Shown here: positions 35,097 to 64,000 of the stretch, one piece after another | How positions within the stretch are numbered: position 1 is the stretch's first letter | Layout of the letters: every line of letters begins with the position of its first letter | Source of the DNA: Candidatus Bathyarchaeia archaeon | GTDB taxonomy: Archaea; Thermoproteota; Bathyarchaeia; 40CM-2-53-6 | Reading direction: 5' to 3' | Length of the DNA stretch: 64,000 nucleotides | Assembly: GCA_050013255.1 (NCBI GenBank) | Contig: JBEKFP010000002.1 | Coordinates: 224,001-288,000, forward strand | Program-made: the position numbers and the translations under genes | The notes under the pieces: generated by a model | Databases searched by the model: none | The model's input: only the letters and a program-made list of their open reading frames with translations | What the model was told of the DNA's origin: nothing

Positions 35097-35969
35097 CTAT
35101 TTTCTCTTCCTAAACACTTTGAATCCCTCTACGTCACAGACATAATCGAACCCTGATTCCACTAGTTCTTGTGCTTCTTTGACGGTCTTAGCTACCTTAG
35201 AAGTGAATTCATCGTCAGGGAAGCTGATTAGCCGAACGTATCGAAGCGTGTTACTAATTGACCGATGGCCGAGGATTTTTTGAACGTGTACTATGTCCCT
35301 TGTCTTATGATACTCCATAGTTCCTTTGAAGTGGCGTAGGCTTCGGAAACTGATTAGTTGAAGCTTCGGGTTCGCCAACTTCAATGCTAGTCTCTTTCGT
35401 TGTCTTTGGAATACTCTTGTGAAATCTTTCAGGCCATCAATGGGAGCTTTGGTCCCGTCATGGAAAATGTACTTCCTATCCTTCGGAAGCAAGTTCAAAC
35501 GGGCAATTAGATTATTGCTAATTCTTAGCTCTCGACTCCTAGAACCCTTCTCAGGTCGAATAACAATCGTGTTCCTATCGAGGTCTATGTGAATCCATTC
35601 CGCTAACCAACCTTCACCCGGTCTACAGCCTGTCTCCTTCAAGAGGAAACAGAATGTTCCAATCTCCCTACTTGGAAGCCCTGAAACTAGTGCGTCAACA
35701 TCTTCCTCTTTCGGAATATGGGGAAGTAAGTCTATCTTCTCATACTTCGGGCGGTCCCACTTAATTCCCTCATACCTGTAGAACCTGTCAACTTCCTCGG
35801 CGATTCTCTGCTTACCGCCCTCATTCCAATCGCAACTCGCCAAAAATCGTTTTACTGATTCAGGTTCTATGATGTTGCATCTACGGTCTAATCGTTTCAA
35901 GCTTCGAACAGCAAAATAGCAAGTGGATTCCCGATAGCCTTCCCTACGCATCCATAAGCCGAAGGACAC
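35097..35969 (-). CDS. Tyrosine recombinase/integrase
   Basis: TGCRPGE (R), PEKGS (K), RSLRH, LGH, TLRY (Y) catalytic motifs; adjacent to tRNA att. Confidence 0.92.
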   Translation of the reverse strand: MSFGLWMRREGYRESTCYFAVRSLKRLDRRCNIIEPESVKRFLASCDWNEGGKQRIAEEVDRFYRYEGIKWDRPKYEKIDLLPHIPKEEDVDALVSGLPSREIGTFCFLLKETGCRPGEGWLAEWIHIDLDRNTIVIRPEKGSRSRELRISNNLIARLNLLPKDRKYIFHDGTKAPIDGLKDFTRVFQRQRKRLALKLANPKLQLISFRSLRHFKGTMEYHKTRDIVHVQKILGHRSISNTLRYVRLISFPDDEFTSKVAKTVKEAQELVESGFDYVCDVEGFKVFRKRK

Positions 35970-35999
35970 TATCTCGTTAACATGTGCGGGGATTAGTTG

Positions 36000-36077
36000 T
36001 GGCGGGCGGGGAGGGATTCGAACCCCCGACCTCAGGCTCCGGAGGCCTGTGCCCTATCCAGGCTAGGCTACCCGCCC
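36000..36077 (-). tRNA. tRNA-Arg(CCG), intronless, CCA encoded
   Basis: GGGCGGG/CCCGCCC acceptor, CAGGC-CTCCGGA-GCCTG anticodon arm, GGGGG-TTCGAAT-CCCTC T arm. Confidence 0.95.
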
Positions 36078-55777: not shown

Positions 55778-55860
55778 GGTTGGTATGCTGGTGCGGGCAG
55801 GCAAATTTGAACCGTCGTCGTTCGTAAAAGTGTGTGTGCGCACCAAAGGTAGCACACACA
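55778..55860. repeat. Site doublet S1(-)/S2(+)
   Basis: TGG-TATGC-TGGTGCG-N9-ATTTGAACC then GTGTGTGTG-CGCACCA-AAGGTA-GCACACACA. Confidence 0.85.
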
Positions 55861-55918
55861 TCGTTAACAGCGTAGTGGCATCTTCGTAGGAACGCGTCTT
55901 TGCTGTATGGTTGAACTC

Positions 55919-56053
55919 CTATTGTCCCAATCGACTAACTATGATCCTCATATCTTTACAGATCTCACAGTACTTGGTTGGACCATAGTAGGAAGTGGAG
56001 ATGGTAGCGAGATGACCGCAATCTAACGTCACAAGGCATTTCGCTCTACTCAG
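55919..56053 (-). CDS. 44-aa zinc-ribbon microprotein (CTG start; not in ORF track)
   Basis: SRAKCLVTLDCGH...YCEICKD; GGAGGGTGA RBS upstream. Confidence 0.5.
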   Translation of the reverse strand: MSRAKCLVTLDCGHLATISTSYYGPTKYCEICKDMRIIVSRLGQ

Positions 56054-56134
56054 TTAGTCACCCTCCTTGACAGGATCACGTGTAGGTCCGTGACTCTTTT
56101 TTTGCTCCTCCTACAGATGCTGATTATGATTATC

Positions 56135-56479
56135 TTAACGCCAGTGAGGGTAAGTTACGTAGAATCCTCGTCCACTGGTCGGTGTGGACCATTCTACTTT
56201 GAGGCCTTTCTTCTGCGGAATGTAAACCACATCTCCCGCTTGAACTTCAGTAGTCTTTCCTCCTTCTTTTAGGATAAATGAACCTTCAGTGCAGTAGATG
56301 ACGGCACAATCGTTGTCGTAATCGAACTCAGTGGGTTCTGATTTCTTGATTTCAATTACCCCAGCAGTAAACGGCGCATTCTGCTTTCTGTCAACAACAT
56401 CGACGAGCTTCAGGTCCGTCGCGCCAGCCTCAAATTTCTCAGGCACTATCAAGGATTTCTTGACTTGAACGATTGACAT
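56135..56479 (-). CDS. EutQ-like cupin protein (start ATG 56479)
   Basis: AG..EI, ..Y..EG...L.......AGDV.YIP, F.YVTYP.W. Confidence 0.75.
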   Translation of the reverse strand: MSIVQVKKSLIVPEKFEAGATDLKLVDVVDRKQNAPFTAGVIEIKKSEPTEFDYDNDCAVIYCTEGSFILKEGGKTTEVQAGDVVYIPQKKGLKVEWSTPTSGRGFYVTYPHWR

Positions 56480-56579
56480 GGTAACCGCGAGTGAGGCCGC
56501 CTGCAGATTACTTAAAGCTTTACAACTCGTGGCCTGCCCTTCGACGACCTTTTCTGATTTTAAGAAGCCAAACTGGTAG

Positions 56580-56617
56580 TTTCGTGTGTGTGTGCGCGCA
56601 CCATTAGAACCACACAC
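56580..56617 (+). repeat. Site S3
   Basis: TTTCGTGTGTGTGTGCG-CGCACCA-TTAGAA-CCACACAC. Confidence 0.85.
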
Positions 56618-56748
56618 TAGGAAAGACGCTTGATCATCGAACGGGCTTTCACATTAGTTCAAGCCCTAAAGGGGTCCTCAAAAAAGAGGATAGGTTTGTG
56701 AAGATCAGGGGTGGTTGCGCTGGTGTTATTCATGTTAGACGTTTCTGC

Positions 56749-56847
56749 TTAGCTGCATTGTTTGTGGTAGCTCTTCTTCATCAGGAAGCCTTTCTTAACC
56801 TCTTGCCCTGAAGGAATCTCCTTCCCACATTTGGCACAGTTTACCAT
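56749..56847 (-). CDS. 32-aa half-LIM-like zinc-finger microprotein (not in ORF track)
   Basis: MVNCAKCGKEIPSGQEVKKGFLMKKSYHKQCS. Confidence 0.55.
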   Translation of the reverse strand: MVNCAKCGKEIPSGQEVKKGFLMKKSYHKQCS

Positions 56848-56964
56848 TACAATACCTCGGGGGTGCCGGTGCTGTCACACTGTATTAAATCGTTCCGGTA
56901 AGCTTGTCCTATCGAGAGTGAACCCCGACCACAAGTATCCGGACGATTCCAAATTTGTAATTCA

Positions 56965-57861
56965 TTATGAATTCGGTGTAGGTTTTCCGCTCCTTTTCTT
57001 GTGACGATACCAGTCGAGGTCTCTTTCATAAGTTGCGTTTGGAAGCATCCTCTTCCATAGATCAGAAATCTTAGCGTCCACTTGGCGGTAGTACTCGTCC
57101 CCTACCCAAAGAAGCTCACGTATTCCTTCCACATCGCAGTGAGGATTCCACGCCTTGTATGCCTTTAGTGTTTGATTGATTATCATGCCGCGTGCATTGT
57201 ATCGGTCCGTCATCAATTTCCTCACGCCTGCCTTTACCAGTCGACTAAGCCCCTCCTCAAGTTCAACCTCAGTCACATATGGTAGCATTGGTGCAATGAA
57301 GACCCATGTCTCCAACCCTGCCTCGTTGAGTTGCCTAACCGCCTCTATTCGCTCCTTGACCGGGGAAGCGTGTGGTTCGAAGATCCGTTGTGCTTCTTGA
57401 TTGAAGGTGGTTATCGTGAAACCTACGTCAACTCTGCTCTTCATGCGTGTGAGCAGGTCGATGTCACGTAGAACAAGAGTGTTTTTGGTTAGAATTGAGA
57501 TGGAGAACTGCGGGTAGTTGGATATGAGTTGGATTGCGCCTCGGGTCAGTTTGTATTTTGCTTCCACTTGCTGATAGGGGTCGCATACGCTGCTTATCCA
57601 AATGCTGCCACTTGGACGTCTTGGGAGTTCTTTAGCTAACACGTCAAGCAGGTTTACCTTCACGTCTACGAAGCTGCCCCAGGGGTCTTGCAGGTGACCG
57701 GAAAAGCGGCGCATGAAGTTGGCGTAGCAATAGACGCAGCCATGCAGGCAACCTGTGTACGGGTTGACCGTGTAATCGTAGCTTAGCCCGCTCTTTGAGA
57801 GAGCCGTCTTGCAGTGTTTCTCCGTGATCTTCGGTCCCGCAGGTTTCACTATTCTCTTCAT
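56965..57861 (-). CDS. Radical SAM protein, spore photoproduct lyase-like family
   Basis: NPY.GCLHGCVYCYA, V.VK.N, SS.CDPYQ..E, ILTK. Confidence 0.85.
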   Translation of the reverse strand: MKRIVKPAGPKITEKHCKTALSKSGLSYDYTVNPYTGCLHGCVYCYANFMRRFSGHLQDPWGSFVDVKVNLLDVLAKELPRRPSGSIWISSVCDPYQQVEAKYKLTRGAIQLISNYPQFSISILTKNTLVLRDIDLLTRMKSRVDVGFTITTFNQEAQRIFEPHASPVKERIEAVRQLNEAGLETWVFIAPMLPYVTEVELEEGLSRLVKAGVRKLMTDRYNARGMIINQTLKAYKAWNPHCDVEGIRELLWVGDEYYRQVDAKISDLWKRMLPNATYERDLDWYRHKKRSGKPTPNS

Positions 57862-58018
57862 CGGGTTCCATCTTTGCAACCGGGCGCTTTTCAACTAGTT
57901 CTTTCTCCCTATCTTCTCTCTTTTTTTGGTGCAAAACTTGCTGAGCAGTAATCTGAACCGTACTGACTTGGTTCTGTGAACTCGCACCCAATGGCGTTTT
58001 GGATGAACCCAGTAGCGT

Positions 58019-58087
58019 TGTGTGGTACTCATCGTGCGAGCGACTGAATTTGAACTCATGTTTTTTTTGCTACGCGCACCATACGTA
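58019..58087. repeat. Site doublet S4(-)/S5(+, degenerate)
   Basis: TGTGTGG-TACTCA-TCGTGCG-N9-ATTTGAACT then T8..CG-CGCACCA-TACGTA. Confidence 0.75.
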
Positions 58088-58124
58088 AGTCCAGACCAAT
58101 AATGATGGAGGGCATTAAGTTCAA

Positions 58125-58475
58125 TCAGACTTGAACTTCAATTACCAAGTTCGGAAGTTTTGTCTGCTTGATGAGAGCTAACCTACGTTCGATGGTCTTG
58201 ATCCTATGAAACATGGAGACCATCGTACGTTGAAAATTCTCGTATTCCGGTGTGCCTTCTTTCTTTTGCTCGCTGAACTCGTGGTCTGCAATTATCTCTC
58301 CAATTAGGAACTTGAATTGCTCGGTGGTTCCATCAAATTGGACATCCACGGTCACCGTGAAACTATGCTTCCAATTTCCATTGGCCGCTGAAATGTTGAC
58401 ATTGTTAAAGACTCGAACTTTCGAGGCACGTTGGTCCAAGATGAGTTTGAATAGATCTTCTAGACTTTGAGACAA
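58125..58475 (-). CDS. Hypothetical protein
   Basis: 116-aa ORF, no motif recognised. Confidence 0.55.
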   Translation of the reverse strand: MSQSLEDLFKLILDQRASKVRVFNNVNISAANGNWKHSFTVTVDVQFDGTTEQFKFLIGEIIADHEFSEQKKEGTPEYENFQRTMVSMFHRIKTIERRLALIKQTKLPNLVIEVQV

Positions 58476-58808
58476 CGTCCCGTCTATCCGAGAGGTTCGT
58501 TCAAGAACGTGTATCAGCTAACCCGTAAATCAACATCACGGTCAGCCTTTATGGTATGAAATTTGGAAATGCGGCAAGACTGAACTATGCTCAACTAGGA
58601 CACGGAATATCGAACCACGAAAACAGCCGCTAATCATGGTTTGAAGGATTCAGCGAAGAACTGGCGGATGACAAAACGTATGGAGTTTATTGTCTGCTGA
58701 GGGACCTACAGAAAAGCAATAGCTCGCAGCATGCGCGCCAATCATCAAGAAAATAGCTGCAGGCTATGCTTAAAGTAAGACTGAGAAGATAATGCCTGTC
58801 GATTTCAA

Positions 58809-59030
58809 TTGGAAGGTCAGAACACCGCTGTAGTGACCAACGTCATTCCGGTGGGCATACATCAGGACCAATTCTACGACATCCAATTCTACTACGAGAC
58901 GGACCCGAAGAAAACGCCGCAATCTTGTAGGCTTGGGCCAGAAGCCGTCCCATCGGGTATCCATCAGGGCATGCGAGTTCGCGTTAAGGCGATGCTAAGC
59001 ACAGTTCTTGGTCTTGAATTAATCACCTGA
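58809..59030 (+). CDS. Hypothetical small protein
   Basis: 73-aa ORF, beta-rich pattern. Confidence 0.45.
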   Translation: MEGQNTAVVTNVIPVGIHQDQFYDIQFYYETDPKKTPQSCRLGPEAVPSGIHQGMRVRVKAMLSTVLGLELIT

Positions 59031-59126
59031 TGCCACTTCCCTTCGGCGGGCAAGTTGAAAAAACAGGCATACCTAAGGGTGTTGTTATGGTAGGCACAAG
59101 AGACGCCAATGTCTCCAAGCGGTTGG

Positions 59127-59159
59127 TTTTCGTGTGTGCGCACCACCTGACCCACACAC
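59127..59159 (+). repeat. Site S6
   Basis: TTTTCGTGTGTG-CGCACCA-CCTGAC-CCACACAC. Confidence 0.85.
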
Positions 59160-59220
59160 CACAGGACTGAGCGCCGGATTTTATCATGAGTTCAATCATG
59201 ATGGGTATTTGTGAATTGAC

Positions 59221-60126
59221 ATGCTTGACACTTTGAGGGGATTCTCAGGGTTCATTTCAATCGAAAGAGGATTCATGCTTTGTGCGATATCTATCGCAGC
59301 AACATTTCTATTAGCAGGGAAATTTGCCTGGCAAGAAGCAACTTACGTCGGTCTTCTAGTCTTTTGCGGGTGGAGCGCCGTAGATGCCATAAATAACGTA
59401 TGCGATGCTGACTTGGATACGAAATCCGACGCCTTTAGATCTCAGTACACAAAGAGCCTTGGAAGATCGGGATTAATGCTATGCCTCATCTTTTTTGCGC
59501 TTACCCTCGGTCTAGGTATAGCGACCCTTAGCCCCTTAGTTGTTACATTCATTTTGCTCGCTGGTGTCGCCGGGCTATTGTATTCTGTTCCTCCATTTAG
59601 GTTGAGGCAAACCATATACAAACCTGTAGTAAACTTCTTTGTCGGAGCCTTCCCAATTCTTATCGCGGCCGCCTTTGCCAGTCACTTTTCTGCAAATGCC
59701 TGGACCCTCGTGTTTCTCTTCGGGCTCGCGACCGCGGGCTATAGTTTATGGGGGGACTTAGCGGACTACGCTTCAGATCTAGATAGTGGGGGAAGAACTA
59801 TTCCGATTGTACTAGGCCTCAAGCGAGGGCTCTGTACTACCATCGTAAGTGGCTACTCTCTCTTTCCGCTCATGGCCCTCGTGGGAGTGATGTTTCAATT
59901 GAACATTCTCTACTACCTCGTACTATTTTCCCTAGCAGCCTACCTCTCCATTCGTGTAATTCTAAAGCGCTCACTGCTACTCTCTAGTCCCACAAATGAT
60001 GATGCAATAGAGCTCTTGGGCCAAACTTTGGCAAAAGTTTTCGTTATTATAGCAATAGTACAGACGACGAATCTCATGTTAAGTGCATTTCTGAAGTTAC
60101 AAGGATTTTCCTTCTGGGTGGTCTAA
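59221..60126 (+). CDS. UbiA family prenyltransferase
   Basis: N..CD.DLD, YS.PPFRL, DL.DY.SD..SG.RT.P..LG Asp-rich motifs; many TMs. Confidence 0.82.
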   Translation: MLDTLRGFSGFISIERGFMLCAISIAATFLLAGKFAWQEATYVGLLVFCGWSAVDAINNVCDADLDTKSDAFRSQYTKSLGRSGLMLCLIFFALTLGLGIATLSPLVVTFILLAGVAGLLYSVPPFRLRQTIYKPVVNFFVGAFPILIAAAFASHFSANAWTLVFLFGLATAGYSLWGDLADYASDLDSGGRTIPIVLGLKRGLCTTIVSGYSLFPLMALVGVMFQLNILYYLVLFSLAAYLSIRVILKRSLLLSSPTNDDAIELLGQTLAKVFVIIAIVQTTNLMLSAFLKLQGFSFWVV

Positions 60127-60180
60127 GAAAAGAGTCAGCCAATGCAGTATACAGATGCAGTTTCTCTAACAGGCCTGTTC

Positions 60181-60268
60181 TTCGTGTGCGCGGGTCTAAT
60201 GGTGCGCACACACACACGAAAAACGACGGTTCAAATTACGATGCTCGCACCATTAGTGCCACACACAC
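60181..60268. repeat. Site doublet S7(-)/S8(+)
   Basis: TTCGTGTGCGCGG-GTCTAA-TGGTGCG-CACACACACACGAAAA then GGTTCAAAT-N9-CGCACCA-TTAGTG-CCACACACAC. Confidence 0.9.
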
Positions 60269-60358
60269 AGAAGCCAGCGAGATACCTATCATTAGATTCG
60301 AGAATCGTATCCGTTCCCTAATAGCCCGAGTAATTATGAAGCAAGGCGTGGGATTTGT

Positions 60359-61183
60359 ATGCAGGGGAAAACAGGCGGCAATAAGTCGGCAAGAGTATTT
60401 GCGCTCTTCTTAGTCATCTGCGCCGTTCCAATCTTAACGAGGCTTGTCGAGAACATTCCAATTACCGCAACACAATTGGCCTATTCCCTCCTCAACGGGG
60501 CTATACTAACAGTTTTTCTCGCTTGGCTAGTGCCCAAGATGCGTCTCAGACGCTGGTCACTGACTCTACTGGTCTGGTTGGAGCTCCTGGTCGTTGAGTT
60601 CCTCAACAACTACGTTGAAGCGTATTTCTTCACGACTCGGTACAGCAACCCCGCAGTTCTTGTGCAATCAGTGGCCTCCGCTCTCATTTCCTCCGTGATC
60701 AGCGCGACGGCCGCGGCTCTCTTGCTCGGCTATGGAATTTCAGGAATCACCGTTTCGTTGAAAGAGTACCTGTCGAAAAGGACGAGTAGCTCGTGGATTC
60801 TCCGAATAGCAGTAGGTTCCGTTGCATATTATCCAATCTACTTCTTCTTCGGCCTCTTGATAAGCCCATTCGTTCTGCCCTACTACAACGATCCTTCGTT
60901 TGGACTTCGGATACCCTCTTTCGCGGTGATGATTCCGGTGGAGCTTTTCAGAGGCTTCGTCTACACCCTCGTCCTCCTGCCTCTGCTAGCGACTGTGGTT
61001 GGAGGGAGAACTGCGAAATTCATTGCACTCGCTGCGATGCTCTACATTCCTGGTGGACTCATCACGCTACTGGGAAACCCAGGAATCCCAGCCCCGATCA
61101 TCCCATTCCACGGGGTAGAGATACTGGCTGACTCAATTGTCTACGGATTAGTCCTGTCTCGTATCCTAAGTCAGCCAAAGTGA
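60359..61183 (+). CDS. Hypothetical multi-TM membrane protein
   Basis: About 8 hydrophobic segments; ELFRG, H..EI.AD. Confidence 0.7.
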   Translation: MQGKTGGNKSARVFALFLVICAVPILTRLVENIPITATQLAYSLLNGAILTVFLAWLVPKMRLRRWSLTLLVWLELLVVEFLNNYVEAYFFTTRYSNPAVLVQSVASALISSVISATAAALLLGYGISGITVSLKEYLSKRTSSSWILRIAVGSVAYYPIYFFFGLLISPFVLPYYNDPSFGLRIPSFAVMIPVELFRGFVYTLVLLPLLATVVGGRTAKFIALAAMLYIPGGLITLLGNPGIPAPIIPFHGVEILADSIVYGLVLSRILSQPK

Positions 61184-61227
61184 GCTCCTAGCCTCAAAGG
61201 TGGAAGGCTGATTTTCGTCGTGCTGTC

Positions 61228-61272
61228 TTCGTGTGTGTGGTATCAATGGTGCGCACACACACACACTGAAAA
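61228..61272 (-). repeat. Site S9
   Basis: TTCGTGTGTGTGG-TATCAA-TGGTGCG-CACACACACACACTGAAAA on + strand. Confidence 0.9.
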
Positions 61273-61288
61273 CGAGTTCGACCGGGCG

Positions 61289-61735
61289 TCAGAAGATTTC
61301 TAACGTACTGTTCCAAGAACTAGTCTCGATCGTTGCAGTATTATTGAACCAAGACTGGTAGAAAATACTAAACGAATAATCACCGGAGGGTACGTTGTAG
61401 ATGATCGGCGAAATGCTCAGGTAGTATTCTCCGTCTTTAGTGAAATTAGCGGTGAGATTGCACTGTCGGTCCACTAACGGAACTCCGCGATCTCTTAGCG
61501 TCACATTCATTTTCATGGTAAAGGTTGCATTAGGCTGCTTTTCGCCTCTAAATGGACCGGGTCTGATAGAATAGCTAGGCAAAGATGTATTGTCGCATAG
61601 GCCTTGACTATAGTCTCTTACAGGAATGAAAGTTGCATTAACGAAGCTTGACGAGACATTCTCTGGAGAGACGGTGACGTCGAAGACGACTAGCTCAGAA
61701 GCTTTAATCGCCCACTGGAGATTGAGTGGCTTCAT
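61289..61735 (-). CDS. Hypothetical protein, extracellular-like composition, possibly 5'-truncated
   Basis: Many N-x-S/T sequons but no signal peptide. Confidence 0.45.
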   Translation of the reverse strand: MKPLNLQWAIKASELVVFDVTVSPENVSSSFVNATFIPVRDYSQGLCDNTSLPSYSIRPGPFRGEKQPNATFTMKMNVTLRDRGVPLVDRQCNLTANFTKDGEYYLSISPIIYNVPSGDYSFSIFYQSWFNNTATIETSSWNSTLEIF

Positions 61736-61741
61736 CTTCTG

Positions 61742-62185
61742 CTAGTCGTTGATGCTCTTCGCGAGGTTCGCCGAACACTTCTTCAGGGTGGCTACTGCGG
61801 CGCTCTCCTCTTCTTCGGTGATTCCCCGCATCATTTCCTTGCGCATGGCCGCCCCTATGTCCGGGACAGTCTTCCACCGCGCAGAGCCCTTGGGAGTGAG
61901 CTTCAGGTAGTTAGCGCGACGGTCTTTCTCACTGGAGGTCCTGTCCAACCATCCCTTCCTGACGAGACCATCTACGACTATGGCCATGCTTCCAGATTCT
62001 ATGCCAAGGTCCTCCTGAAACGCCTTCTGGGAGATCCGCCCCGCTCCGTTGACCTGATAGAGGACGGACCAGGAGCTCCGAGTCAGACCGAATGGTTTGA
62101 GGAGCCTGCTAATCTTGACGGTCACGTCATGGTTTATCACTTTCACCCAGTGACCGAGATACCTGACCTGAGGACTGGCTTCCAT
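61742..62185 (-). CDS. MarR family transcriptional regulator
   Basis: GLT...W.VL, L.RKGW..R.....DRR...L.LT.KG. Confidence 0.88.
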   Translation of the reverse strand: MEASPQVRYLGHWVKVINHDVTVKISRLLKPFGLTRSSWSVLYQVNGAGRISQKAFQEDLGIESGSMAIVVDGLVRKGWLDRTSSEKDRRANYLKLTPKGSARWKTVPDIGAAMRKEMMRGITEEEESAAVATLKKCSANLAKSIND

Positions 62186-62287
62186 GCAAGGCCGGTTGGT
62201 TTCTCGCCTCTATATCTAATTGCTTTACTCGAATTTACTTTATACAATGCATTTTATAGCCGCGCTAACTACCTCCTAGTCTAGAAA

Positions 62288-63139
62288 ATGAACGTCCTGG
62301 TAACGGGAGCAACTGGAAAAGTAGGCAGCAGATTAGTTCCGTCTCTGCTCAGCGGCGGTCATTCCGTACGAATACTTGTGCGAAGAACCGATGACGAAAC
62401 CGTAAGGAAGCTCAAAGCCAAAGGGGCAGAGACTTTCATCGGCGATATCATGCAGCCTGAGAGCTTGCAAGAAGCCCTTGACGGAGTCGATGCGATCGTG
62501 CACCTTGCAGCTTTCTTTCGCAGTCAAGATGCAGAAAAGATCAAAAGTGTCAATGAAATCGGCACGAAAAATATAGCCGAAGCGGCTTCGCAAATTAACA
62601 CAGGGATTCGTTTTGTTTTTTCAAGCACAAGTAATGTTTACAACAATGAGACCGCGCCTGGCCTAGAAAGTGATCTCGTTAGTCCAGCGGCTGCCTATCC
62701 CGCGAGCAAGGTAGCTTCGGAAAAACTCTTGCTTGGCATGCACGCGGCGAAACAACTTGACGTTTGCATCCTGCGCTTCGTTTTCGTATATGGCGCCGGG
62801 GATCCGCATCTACCAGAATCGATTCCGTTTTTTGAGCGGTTGAGCCTGCATCCGGCATATAGGTTGCATCTTGTACACCATTTGGATATAGCACAAGCCG
62901 TGAAGCTGGCAATGAGCGTTTCTGCCATGGGCGGTGAGATATACAACGTCGCCGATGACTCGCCGATTACTCTACAAGAGGTCATCCAACTGATGGGTCA
63001 AACCGCGAAGCTTGCAAATCCAGCGACTCCTTTGACAAACGCGTGGAGCGGCCTCGTTAGCGCTGGAAAAATTCGAAGTCTCGGATTTCGTCCGTTGGTT
63101 CCTTCTTATTACGCAGCGAGCGACCTGAATATACTGTAG
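62288..63139 (+). CDS. NAD-dependent epimerase/dehydratase (extended SDR)
   Basis: VTGATGKVG, HLAA, FSST..VY, YPASK. Confidence 0.88.
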   Translation: MNVLVTGATGKVGSRLVPSLLSGGHSVRILVRRTDDETVRKLKAKGAETFIGDIMQPESLQEALDGVDAIVHLAAFFRSQDAEKIKSVNEIGTKNIAEAASQINTGIRFVFSSTSNVYNNETAPGLESDLVSPAAAYPASKVASEKLLLGMHAAKQLDVCILRFVFVYGAGDPHLPESIPFFERLSLHPAYRLHLVHHLDIAQAVKLAMSVSAMGGEIYNVADDSPITLQEVIQLMGQTAKLANPATPLTNAWSGLVSAGKIRSLGFRPLVPSYYAASDLNIL

Positions 63140-63235
63140 TCGTCAAAATATCTCTTGCGCGATAGGGTTGCCATGCACGCGAAGTTCGAAGGAGGTCGTC
63201 AGCATCCTAGCAGAAGGTGAAAGTGGCATGTGAAG

Positions 63236-63334
63236 TCGTGTGTGTGGTATCAATGGTGCGAGCACCAGAAATTGAACTGAGGCATCTTTGTGTGTGGTAT
63301 TAATGGTGCGGCCGCCAAGAACCATGATTCAAAC
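63236..63334 (-). repeat. Tandem sites S10/S11
   Basis: GTGTGTGG-TATCAA-TGGTGCG-N9-AATTGAACT and GTGTGTGG-TATTAA-TGGTGCG-GCCGCCAAG on + strand, 50 bp apart. Confidence 0.9.
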
Positions 63335-63649
63335 GTGGTTCCCACGGTTCGGCCTAGGTCACAAATCTCAGAAGATCGTAGAATAGTAACTGCAAACATT
63401 TTTGCTTTGTTGTGGGCTCGAAATCTCATTAAAATCACGGGCATCTCAACGGCGTAGTGATCAAGACCTGAAAGAGCGGAATCTACGTTCTCATTTCTCA
63501 AACGATTTGGCTATATGCTATCTGCGAATGCCTTGAAGACCTTCTAGACAGGCCTAAACGAAAATCAAAGTGCGGAATCCGCACGTGCCTTTCTATTAGC
63601 CGCGGCAACATTCATTGAAAGTTTCCGAAAAGTGAAATGACTATAATCC

Positions 63650-64000
63650 TTACGTGTCTCTTTCCAATTCGTCCAGAAAATCGTCGAACTGAGCCTTCGC
63701 CACGCAGGAGACCCTGTCAGCTCCACCGTAATAAGTCAAAAGATCACCATCGCGAATAACTGCTCCTTCTGGGAACACAACATTTGGGACCAGACCGCGT
63801 TTTTCAAACTCCATTTCGGGTTCAAGGATGGGCTTCCTAGTCCGCGCTAGAATCTTGGCGGGTTCGTCCAAATCAAGCAGAAGTGCCCCTACACGGTAGA
63901 TTCGCTGCACATCCACGCCATGATAAATCACGAGCCATCCGCGATCCGTTTTGATGGGTGGAGGGCCGACACCAACTTTCCATTCTTCCCAACGATATTT
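63650..64000 (-). CDS. GH130-like glycosidase/phosphorylase, 5' part outside window
   Basis: YHGV...YR.GA.LLDL..P, PILEP...E..G.VPNVVFP.G, YYG.AD. Confidence 0.85.
   Translation of the reverse strand, partial: KYRWEEWKVGVGPPPIKTDRGWLVIYHGVDVQRIYRVGALLLDLDEPAKILARTRKPILEPEMEFEKRGLVPNVVFPEGAVIRDGDLLTYYGGADRVSCVAKAQFDDFLDELERDT

Follow-up and report, generated by a model that had tools for sequence, protein, structure and literature searches.

A gene-cassette array in a Bathyarchaeia archaeon, read as probable Cas1-less mini-casposons at a tRNA-Gly-like site

The DNA examined here is a 64,000-nucleotide stretch (the window) of a Candidatus Bathyarchaeia archaeon, positions 224,001 to 288,000 of contig JBEKFP010000002.1 (assembly GCA_050013255.1), in which accessory genes at 55778-63334 are separated by 11 sites (S1 to S11) with the core CGCACCA. 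The array probably consists of mini-casposons that lack both Cas1 and a polymerase and were inserted by a trans-acting casposase at a tRNA-Gly-like site. Published work treats casposons as large elements, without exception equipped with Cas1 and a polymerase of their own, and as a rare side branch from which CRISPR adaptation arose (PMC6452270). Casposons, their targets and their tandem insertion are known; enzyme-less natural units and arrays of a dozen junctions with ordinary genes are unreported in the literature searched. That literature yielded no natural non-autonomous or polymerase-less casposons, no Bathyarchaeia casposases and no published description of such an array, and in it the term "mini-casposon" denotes laboratory constructs. 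One of these, an artificial mini-casposon with a marker between terminal inverted repeats, has been excised and integrated in vivo in Methanosarcina mazei (PMC10359463).

According to this model, the 11 sites would be junctions left by a family-2-type casposase (a Cas1 transposase), with a 14-bp target duplicated at each insertion. The leader (TCAAAT 8 bp upstream, often present) would be the T-loop of the tRNA or a copy carried in an element end. The tips of the units, found on one or both sides of a site, would be (CA)n reading in and (GT)n reading out, such that a leader-type site would consist of leader, target and tip, and a (GT)n-type site of a tip, a shared target and the tip of the next unit. 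Units of 1-3 genes would have been stacked on a decayed tRNA-Gly 3' fragment (63311-63340), retaining only the short tips needed by the casposase, and would have been inserted, or sometimes moved as composites, by enzyme supplied in trans. In what follows, G000 is the source genome, C1, C2 and C3 are its contigs, and G004, G014 and the like are the genomes of other species.

The recurrent motif and its distribution

The pattern CGCACCA-N6-CCACACAC, with up to 2 mismatches allowed, has 9 matches in the window, all within 55839-63310, against a chance expectation of 0.07 from shuffles; none of 100 shuffles reached 9. The recurrence of the motif, described in an earlier note made from the letters of this DNA, is thus borne out. 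Ten of the 11 sites are solid, and S5 (58075, plus strand), an exact core alone, is rated weak. S1 (55789, minus strand) has an exact core and a tRNA-like flank without the CA arm, and the core of S4, CGCACGA, carries one mismatch. The same note placed the sites always between genes, and an open reading frame (ORF) check agrees for all 11; a 160-aa ORF overlapping S3 is an over-extended call of a 115-aa cupin gene.

The family is not confined to the window. The whole 2.46-Mb genome holds 72 strict sites, or about 100 with a looser finder, and the motif was found in all 22 congeners searched, with up to 70 copies each. Rather than being scattered beside core genes, the sites are clustered: 84 of 99 lie in clusters of at least three, compared with 25 expected at random. 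Among 201 genomes sampled from the class, the motif is frequent in nine genera and nearly absent from others (reversed patterns, used as a control, gave 0-2 matches). The stretch itself is present in 20 metagenome runs, all as contigs, and the source DNA of these runs is peat and wetland.

Site geometry and relation to tRNA-Gly

Across the genome, CACAC starts 7 nt past CGCACCA in 59 of the 71 arm-bearing sites, and the stretch between left flank and arm is therefore 14 bp long. Likewise, in 46 of 51 sites a gap of 9 nt separates the end of TTCAAAT from CGCACCA, which places the end of TCAAATN 8 bp before the 14-mer. The N6 positions carry almost no information, in keeping with the conserved core and variable spacer first noticed in the window. 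Both kinds of left flank noticed there are real and recur genome-wide: (i) a leader, made of ACGAC repeats followed by GGTTCAAAT and 9 nt, with GTTCAAAT-N9 present at 47 genome sites; and (ii) a (GT)n run, present at about 38. A third kind, a G-rich run, occurs at four places in the genome. A distance of 14 bp separates the two inverted arms, (GT)n and (CA)n; leader-type sites have one arm only, and the core is asymmetric.

As read from the sequence, the target of the sites is CGCACCA plus N7, beginning with the last bases of tRNA-Gly. Two probable tRNA-Gly genes of the genome end in ...CCCGGCGGCCGCACCA, and the flank of S11 carries the exact last 13 nt of both, which upholds the derivation of the core from a tRNA-Gly 3' end. 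The C3 gene has a UCC anticodon loop, read by eye, and the C1 gene a GCC one, which is less secure; ARAGORN was unable to name these two intron-bearing genes. Four genuine tRNA genes ending in CGCACCA with TTCGAAT T-loops have no tip behind them, whereas a tip is present behind the tRNA-Gly gene with TTCAAAT. In the 68 kb that follow the C1 tRNA-Gly gene, the 14-mer has no second copy. Rfam reported only a tRNA-Arg in the window. Most tRNA genes of this genome have introns and an encoded CCA; ARAGORN finds 7 of them and the Rfam tRNA model 19.

Each conserved and each variable part of the motif has a counterpart in the maps of the M. mazei and Aciduliprofundum boonei casposases. The A. boonei enzyme requires TCAAATC 8 bp upstream of the duplicated segment together with the first two bases of that segment, tolerates deletion of two-thirds of the segment, and makes do with the last 5 nt of the element 3' end (PMC6614799). 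The M. mazei enzyme makes 14-bp duplications with an invariant CGCA start and a variable middle, which overlap the last bases of tRNA-Leu; it depends on some 30 bp of tRNA sequence upstream. Casposons in tandem have a single duplication in common, and solo ends are found beside CGCA (PMC6977970, PMC4779613).

Target duplications

Unit D of the array is flanked by identical direct 14-mers, CGCACCATTGATAC, whose N7 occurs nowhere else in the genome. Among sites at most 30 kb apart, 14 same-strand pairs share an identical N7, compared with 4.7 +/- 2.2 in shuffled data, where 14 was reached in 10 of 5000 rounds; on opposite strands, 6 pairs do so. The genome holds eight groups of identical 14-mers, and in every one of them the first copy bears the leader and the last copy has a tip on its 5' side. 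Three of these groups have three copies in the order leader-site-unit-site-unit-site. The direct duplications enclose whole units of 0.6-16 kb and are of fixed length, for which 13 and 14 bp are inseparable.

Cas1-bearing elements as a source of the enzyme

The window array contains no recombinase gene, as the earlier note had remarked, and any enzyme would have to act in trans. There is also no Cas1 within 55778-63334; the genome has two PF01867 matches, both elsewhere, so that the units of the window can be no more than non-autonomous derivatives. The two Cas1 genes share 60% identity, and each is located within a large site cluster. The 404-aa Cas1 aligns end to end, C-terminal helix-turn-helix included, with the M. 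mazei casposase (PDB 6OPM, E 8e-77), and its best CRISPR Cas1 match is at 2e-22. The terminal inverted repeats of the C1 element measure about 150 bp and open with a (CA)n tip; direct copies of CGCACCATTAGACC flank the element, with a leader on one side. The C3 element, situated 2.2 kb from a tRNA-Gly gene, has direct copies of CGCACCAGCATACC at its ends, next to a leader. Neither the arrays nor the Cas1 elements have a family B polymerase: PF00136 was matched only at C2:17893, C2:399772 and C2:658904, with one sub-threshold match at C2:554229, and PF03175 was not found in the genome search. Defence-type cargo adjoins both Cas1 genes, an AIPR abortive-infection protein at C1:1331657-1333345 and a TIR-domain protein at C3:232395-233159.

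We infer from these sequences that a casposase acts on the window cassettes, and the best candidate would be the Cas1 of the CA-tipped 16.3-kb C1 casposon. A second tip type, the G-rich run at the same 14-bp target, occurs only at the C3 element with Cas1 and the TIR-domain gene and at one solo end (C1:770454). Two tip types at one landing site suggest that casposases and ends come in two specificities.

Casposase-type genes and sites tend to occur together. Among the 201 genomes, with casposase-type and CRISPR-type matches split by identity and region covered, casposase-type matches were found in 11-12 of the 15 genomes with at least three sites and in 3-5 of the 186 others (Fisher p ~4e-13, kin not being independent). 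Counted by genus, the figures are 8-9 of 9 and 2-4 of 78 (Fisher p ~1e-9).

Mobility of the cassettes among species

Cassette content varies among species, and single cassettes have near-identical copies elsewhere. For the SDR cassette, 1,200 bp match G019 at 99.25% identity, against 70-87% for other G019 matches to the 12-kb query. At the (GT)n tip the homology breaks off, and the 14-mers next to it are not the same; in G019, the SDR unit and two solo modules sit between identical 14-mers, CGCACCACTATACC. Copies of the cupin cassette with 95-96% identity occur in G004 and G021; both contain the body, and G004 the right end as well. The same end of this cassette meets an inverted 14-mer at its 3' end in G004, and the 5' CGCA end of the 14-mer in the window. 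Such contacts would not be permitted by a directional recombination site, but would be by a transposon that inserts in either orientation.

Within the genome, self-BLAST of the array gave second copies of modules (40-90 bp) only, and no cargo gene is duplicated. Neighbourhoods are rearranged with respect to G014 and G018 at a conserved gene (window 52.0-53.6 kb). Downstream of the orthologue of this gene, G018:C2:434100-439700 holds homologues of cargo from the arrays at C1:1347 kb, C1:1155 kb and C2:744 kb, one of these homologues lying between two sites.

Comparison with known systems

The window array most resembles the family 2 casposons of M. mazei (e.g., MetMaz1FA1A3-C2), with which it has in common a 14-bp CGCA-bordered target over a tRNA 3' end, an upstream leader, shared duplications in tandem, solo ends by CGCA and, for the genomic Cas1, full-length alignment. 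Published casposons measure 8-20 kb and carry Cas1 and a family B polymerase, whereas the window units measure 0.7-2 kb and carry neither; both Cas1 elements of this genome are also polymerase-less. In addition, the target here is tRNA-Gly rather than tRNA-Leu, and arrays reach about a dozen sites, as opposed to two elements in M. mazei. As in AciBoo-C1 of A. boonei, which targets tRNA-Pro, there is a TCAAAT leader, the first bases are conserved, the remainder is variable and the tips are short. The tRNA and the tips differ, and the A. boonei data were obtained in vitro with one element, in contrast to the natural arrays of many units here.

Integron arrays are likewise made of accessory cassettes of 1-2 genes with short sites, an enzyme encoded outside the cassettes and content that varies among relatives. 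Unlike integrons, the array has no IntI-type recombinase beside it, no common orientation and no attC fold (judged without IntegronFinder). A dif site has inverted XerC and XerD half-sites about 6 bp apart. Unlike pdif modules, the sites here have inverted arms 14 bp apart, an asymmetric core and a single arm where a leader is present. With CRISPR arrays, the system shares an integrase of the Cas1 family, insertion under the direction of a leader and a short repeat that is duplicated each time (three 3-copy groups). CRISPR repeats measure 24-47 bp, and spacers start at about 26 bp (PMC4779613). On the other hand, the repeat here has 14 bp, the inserts are tipped, gene-bearing and 0.04-16 kb long, and orientations are mixed (Cas2, crRNA and an interference module were not searched for). 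The earlier opinion that the sites are not attC, dif or CRISPR repeats holds: they are a 14-bp core that either has (GT)n and (CA)n on its two sides or follows a tRNA-like leader.

Alternative explanations

The earlier note took the array for an integron- or pdif-module-like system. On that view, a tyrosine (or serine) recombinase would exchange strands in N6, taken as a 6-8 bp crossover, and insert circular cassettes. Insertion of circles through a shared core would also give identical flanking cores and arm/core/arm junctions, and a circular intermediate has been suggested even for casposons in published M. mazei work; moreover, a 27-bp repeat of the tRNA-Gly end around a 2.2-kb insert on C3 is att-like. 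However, arms 14 bp apart do not suit a crossover of that length, leader-type sites have no second arm, and the cupin cassette is flipped relative to the site in another species. The genome has three PF00589 matches (C3:28755, C3:131514 and C2:259232), of which two adjoin other tRNAs and none, C3:131514 included, lies near an array. No recombinase gene was found in the arrays examined, and two Cas1 casposons lie within arrays, with these sites at their flanks. The conserved and variable positions also fit casposase determinants, and the recombinase explanation, along with the integron and pdif analogy, is highly improbable. The C2:259232 recombinase corresponds to window 35232-35651; this PF00589 gene (minus strand) stands directly beside tRNA-Arg(CCG) within 35232-36077, an arrangement typical of integrated elements of the integrase type. 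It has no relation to the array, which is 20 kb away.

Repetitive extragenic palindromic (REP)- or miniature inverted-repeat transposable element (MITE)-like spread, in which only modules of 40-90 bp multiply and the cassettes are ordinary genes between them, would agree with the single-copy state of cargo genes within a genome where modules alone repeat, with the solo modules M, M' and M'', with the recurrence of the S7-M-S8 site-module-site block (about 90 bp) at no fewer than 10 other genome places, and with a metagenome depth 2-10x higher over modules. Some cargo homologues, such as the radical SAM gene in G014, also lack sites. Yet the cross-species homology of whole cassettes at 95-99% ends exactly at the tips, well above the background similarity given above; direct 14-bp duplications span entire units in leader-first order, Cas1-carrying elements share the same ends, and the strong clustering of sites is not that of a family spread among core genes. 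These points make it improbable. A graveyard of a few decayed tandem full-size casposons, reduced by deletion and rearrangement to solo ends and cargo, with small units that never moved alone, is quite improbable as well, although Methanosarcina is known to have solo terminal inverted repeats and casposons in tandem, Cas1 fragments are common among the congeners of the source organism, the inverted and decayed sites S1, S4 and S5 speak of rearrangement, and seven site-bearing congeners have no casposase match. The duplication around unit D, a unit of only 2 kb, is still intact and its N7 unique, the SDR and cupin units occur in other species as small tip-bounded units between other 14-mers, and the cargo is metabolic and regulatory, in contrast to the defence-type cargo of both Cas1 elements. 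Att remnants of tyrosine integrases and a REP-like family were also considered, and were rejected after Cas1 had been tested.

Several observations weigh against insertion by a casposase. The cassettes have hardly any inverted repeat, (CA)n/(GT)n and a few bases compared with about 150 bp in the C1 element, and the tips are low-complexity sequence. Base 14 of the site is an almost invariant C that is assignable neither to target nor to tip, and the duplication may therefore measure 13 or 14 bp. Neighbouring 14-mers are often inverted rather than direct (S3/S4, S6/S7, S8/S9); we assume that composite units, or long modular ends with an internal leader and site, explain this. The C3 element is such a composite, with an inverted internal site within a pair of identical direct 14-mers. 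The 27-bp direct repeat of the tRNA-Gly 3' end on C3 looks like an integrase att pair, and thus like a second mechanism at this tRNA. This repeat, which bounds the 2.2-kb insert (C3:239087-241326) between the tRNA and the Cas1 casposon array, runs from the end of the T-loop to past CCA with one mismatch and has no CA/GT tips. The radical SAM copy in G014 is 97% identical, shortened and without surrounding sites. It matches window 56634-57789 at G014:C48:727-1891; peat metagenome contigs share the end point 57789, at about twice the depth. Seven congeners with 9-50 sites have no casposase match, and two of these genomes are 96-98% complete. No transposition was seen: contigs in four metagenome runs bridge 58856-63347 without differences, and no clean empty-site joint was found among the public metagenome contigs of these four runs. 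The joints that do occur have a shorter side of 21-40 nt in repeated modules, and so probably belong to other loci or organisms.

Organization of the array

The sites split the region into gene cassettes, as first proposed, which appear as mobile units of 1-3 genes (Table 1). Apart from unit G, of which only the right tip is retained, the window units begin and end in (CA)n and (GT)n tips, to which CGAAAA is often added and little more, and the genes between the sites lie on both strands. S1 is the far edge of the array, with no tip after its target. The 0.5-kb piece of unit G has a 90% identical copy between two sites in G007. Right of the array, a GH130 gene (window 63430-64000 onward, C2:287430-299500) is 96-98% identical in G004, G011, G002 and G021. 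Metagenome contigs break at 63639, weak sites occur at C2:290593 and C2:299500, and the mobile region probably continues beyond the end of the window.

Table 1. Features of the array, from its tRNA-side anchor to its far edge, and the Cas1-bearing elements of the genome (window positions unless a contig is named)
Feature	Position	Strand	Description
Anchor	63311-63340	-	Decayed tRNA-Gly 3' fragment, array "leader"; 13 nt beside S11 are the tRNA-Gly 3' end
S11	63297-63310	-	14-bp target copy CGCACCA + TTAATAC, adjoining the anchor
M'	63261-63296	-	36-bp solo module: CA tip, then TCAAAT-type leader serving S10
S10	63247-63260	-	CGCACCA + TTGATAC, leader-side copy of the duplication around unit D
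Unit D	61254-63246	-	1,993 bp; CA/GT tips at both ends, identical direct 14-mers outside
Unit D, ORF	61289-61735	-	148 aa
Unit D, MarR	61742-62185	-	
Unit D, NAD-dependent epimerase/SDR	62288-63139	+	
S9	61240-61253	-	CGCACCA + TTGATAC, distal copy of the unit D duplication, common to unit E
Unit E	60260-61239	+	CA/GT tips at both ends
Unit E, ORF	60359-61183	+	274 aa, without Pfam match; labelled membrane protein in the earlier note
S8	60246-60259	+	CGCACCA + TTAGTGC, leader module M on 5' side
M	60207-60245	+	39-bp solo module: CA tip, ACGAC repeat, GGTTCAAAT leader
S7	60193-60206	-	CGCACCA + TTAGACC
Unit F	59153-60192	+	Tips at both ends
Unit F, UbiA-family prenyltransferase	59221-60126	+	
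S6	59139-59152	+	CGCACCA + CCTGACC, tips on both sides
Unit G	58089-59138	.	Right tip only retained; 116-aa ORF and 0.5-kb piece
Unit G, ORF	58125-58475	-	116 aa, no known family
S5	58075-58088	+	Core only, without arm or leader; weak or decayed
S4	58025-58060	-	Target with one core mismatch (58025-58038), TCAAAT leader (58039-58060)
Unit C	56611-58024	-	Tips at both ends
Unit C, radical SAM enzyme	56965-57894	-	
S3	56597-56610	+	CGCACCA + TTAGAAC, tips on both sides
Unit B	55853-56596	-	Cassette
Unit B, EutQ-like cupin	56135-56482	-	
S2	55839-55852	+	CGCACCA + AAGGTAG, tips on both sides
S1 and M''	55782-55838	-	CGCACCA + GCATACC (55782-55795); solo module M'', leader and tip (55796-55838)
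C1 casposon	C1:1330273-1346555		16.3 kb; Cas1 and AIPR protein
C1 casposon, Cas1 gene	C1:1333438-1334640		
C3 casposon	C3:228079-239043		Cas1 and TIR-domain gene, G-rich tips
C3 casposon, Cas1 gene	C3:231179-232390		

Implications

About 100 casposase-type junctions per genome bound everyday genes (cupin, radical SAM, UbiA, MarR and SDR) in units of 1-2 kb, in a type of array that sits between transposon, integron and CRISPR array. If a casposase moves these units, non-autonomous casposons would exist in nature, and Cas1 would be a general gene-shuffling enzyme in widespread peat and wetland archaea. The step from a target-duplicating transposon to a leader-directed repeat array, which models of CRISPR origin require, would then be open to study in an extant system. 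It is possible, though we hold this view only tentatively, that the casposase runs a working gene-cassette platform, in which a trans-acting Cas1 repeatedly inserts enzyme-less units at 14-bp sites with a leader, duplicates the site at every insertion, and so builds leader-repeat-insert arrays and reshuffles metabolic and regulatory genes across species. If so, the platform would be a functional counterpart of the integron in archaea and would stand, as a living intermediate, between the casposon and the CRISPR array.

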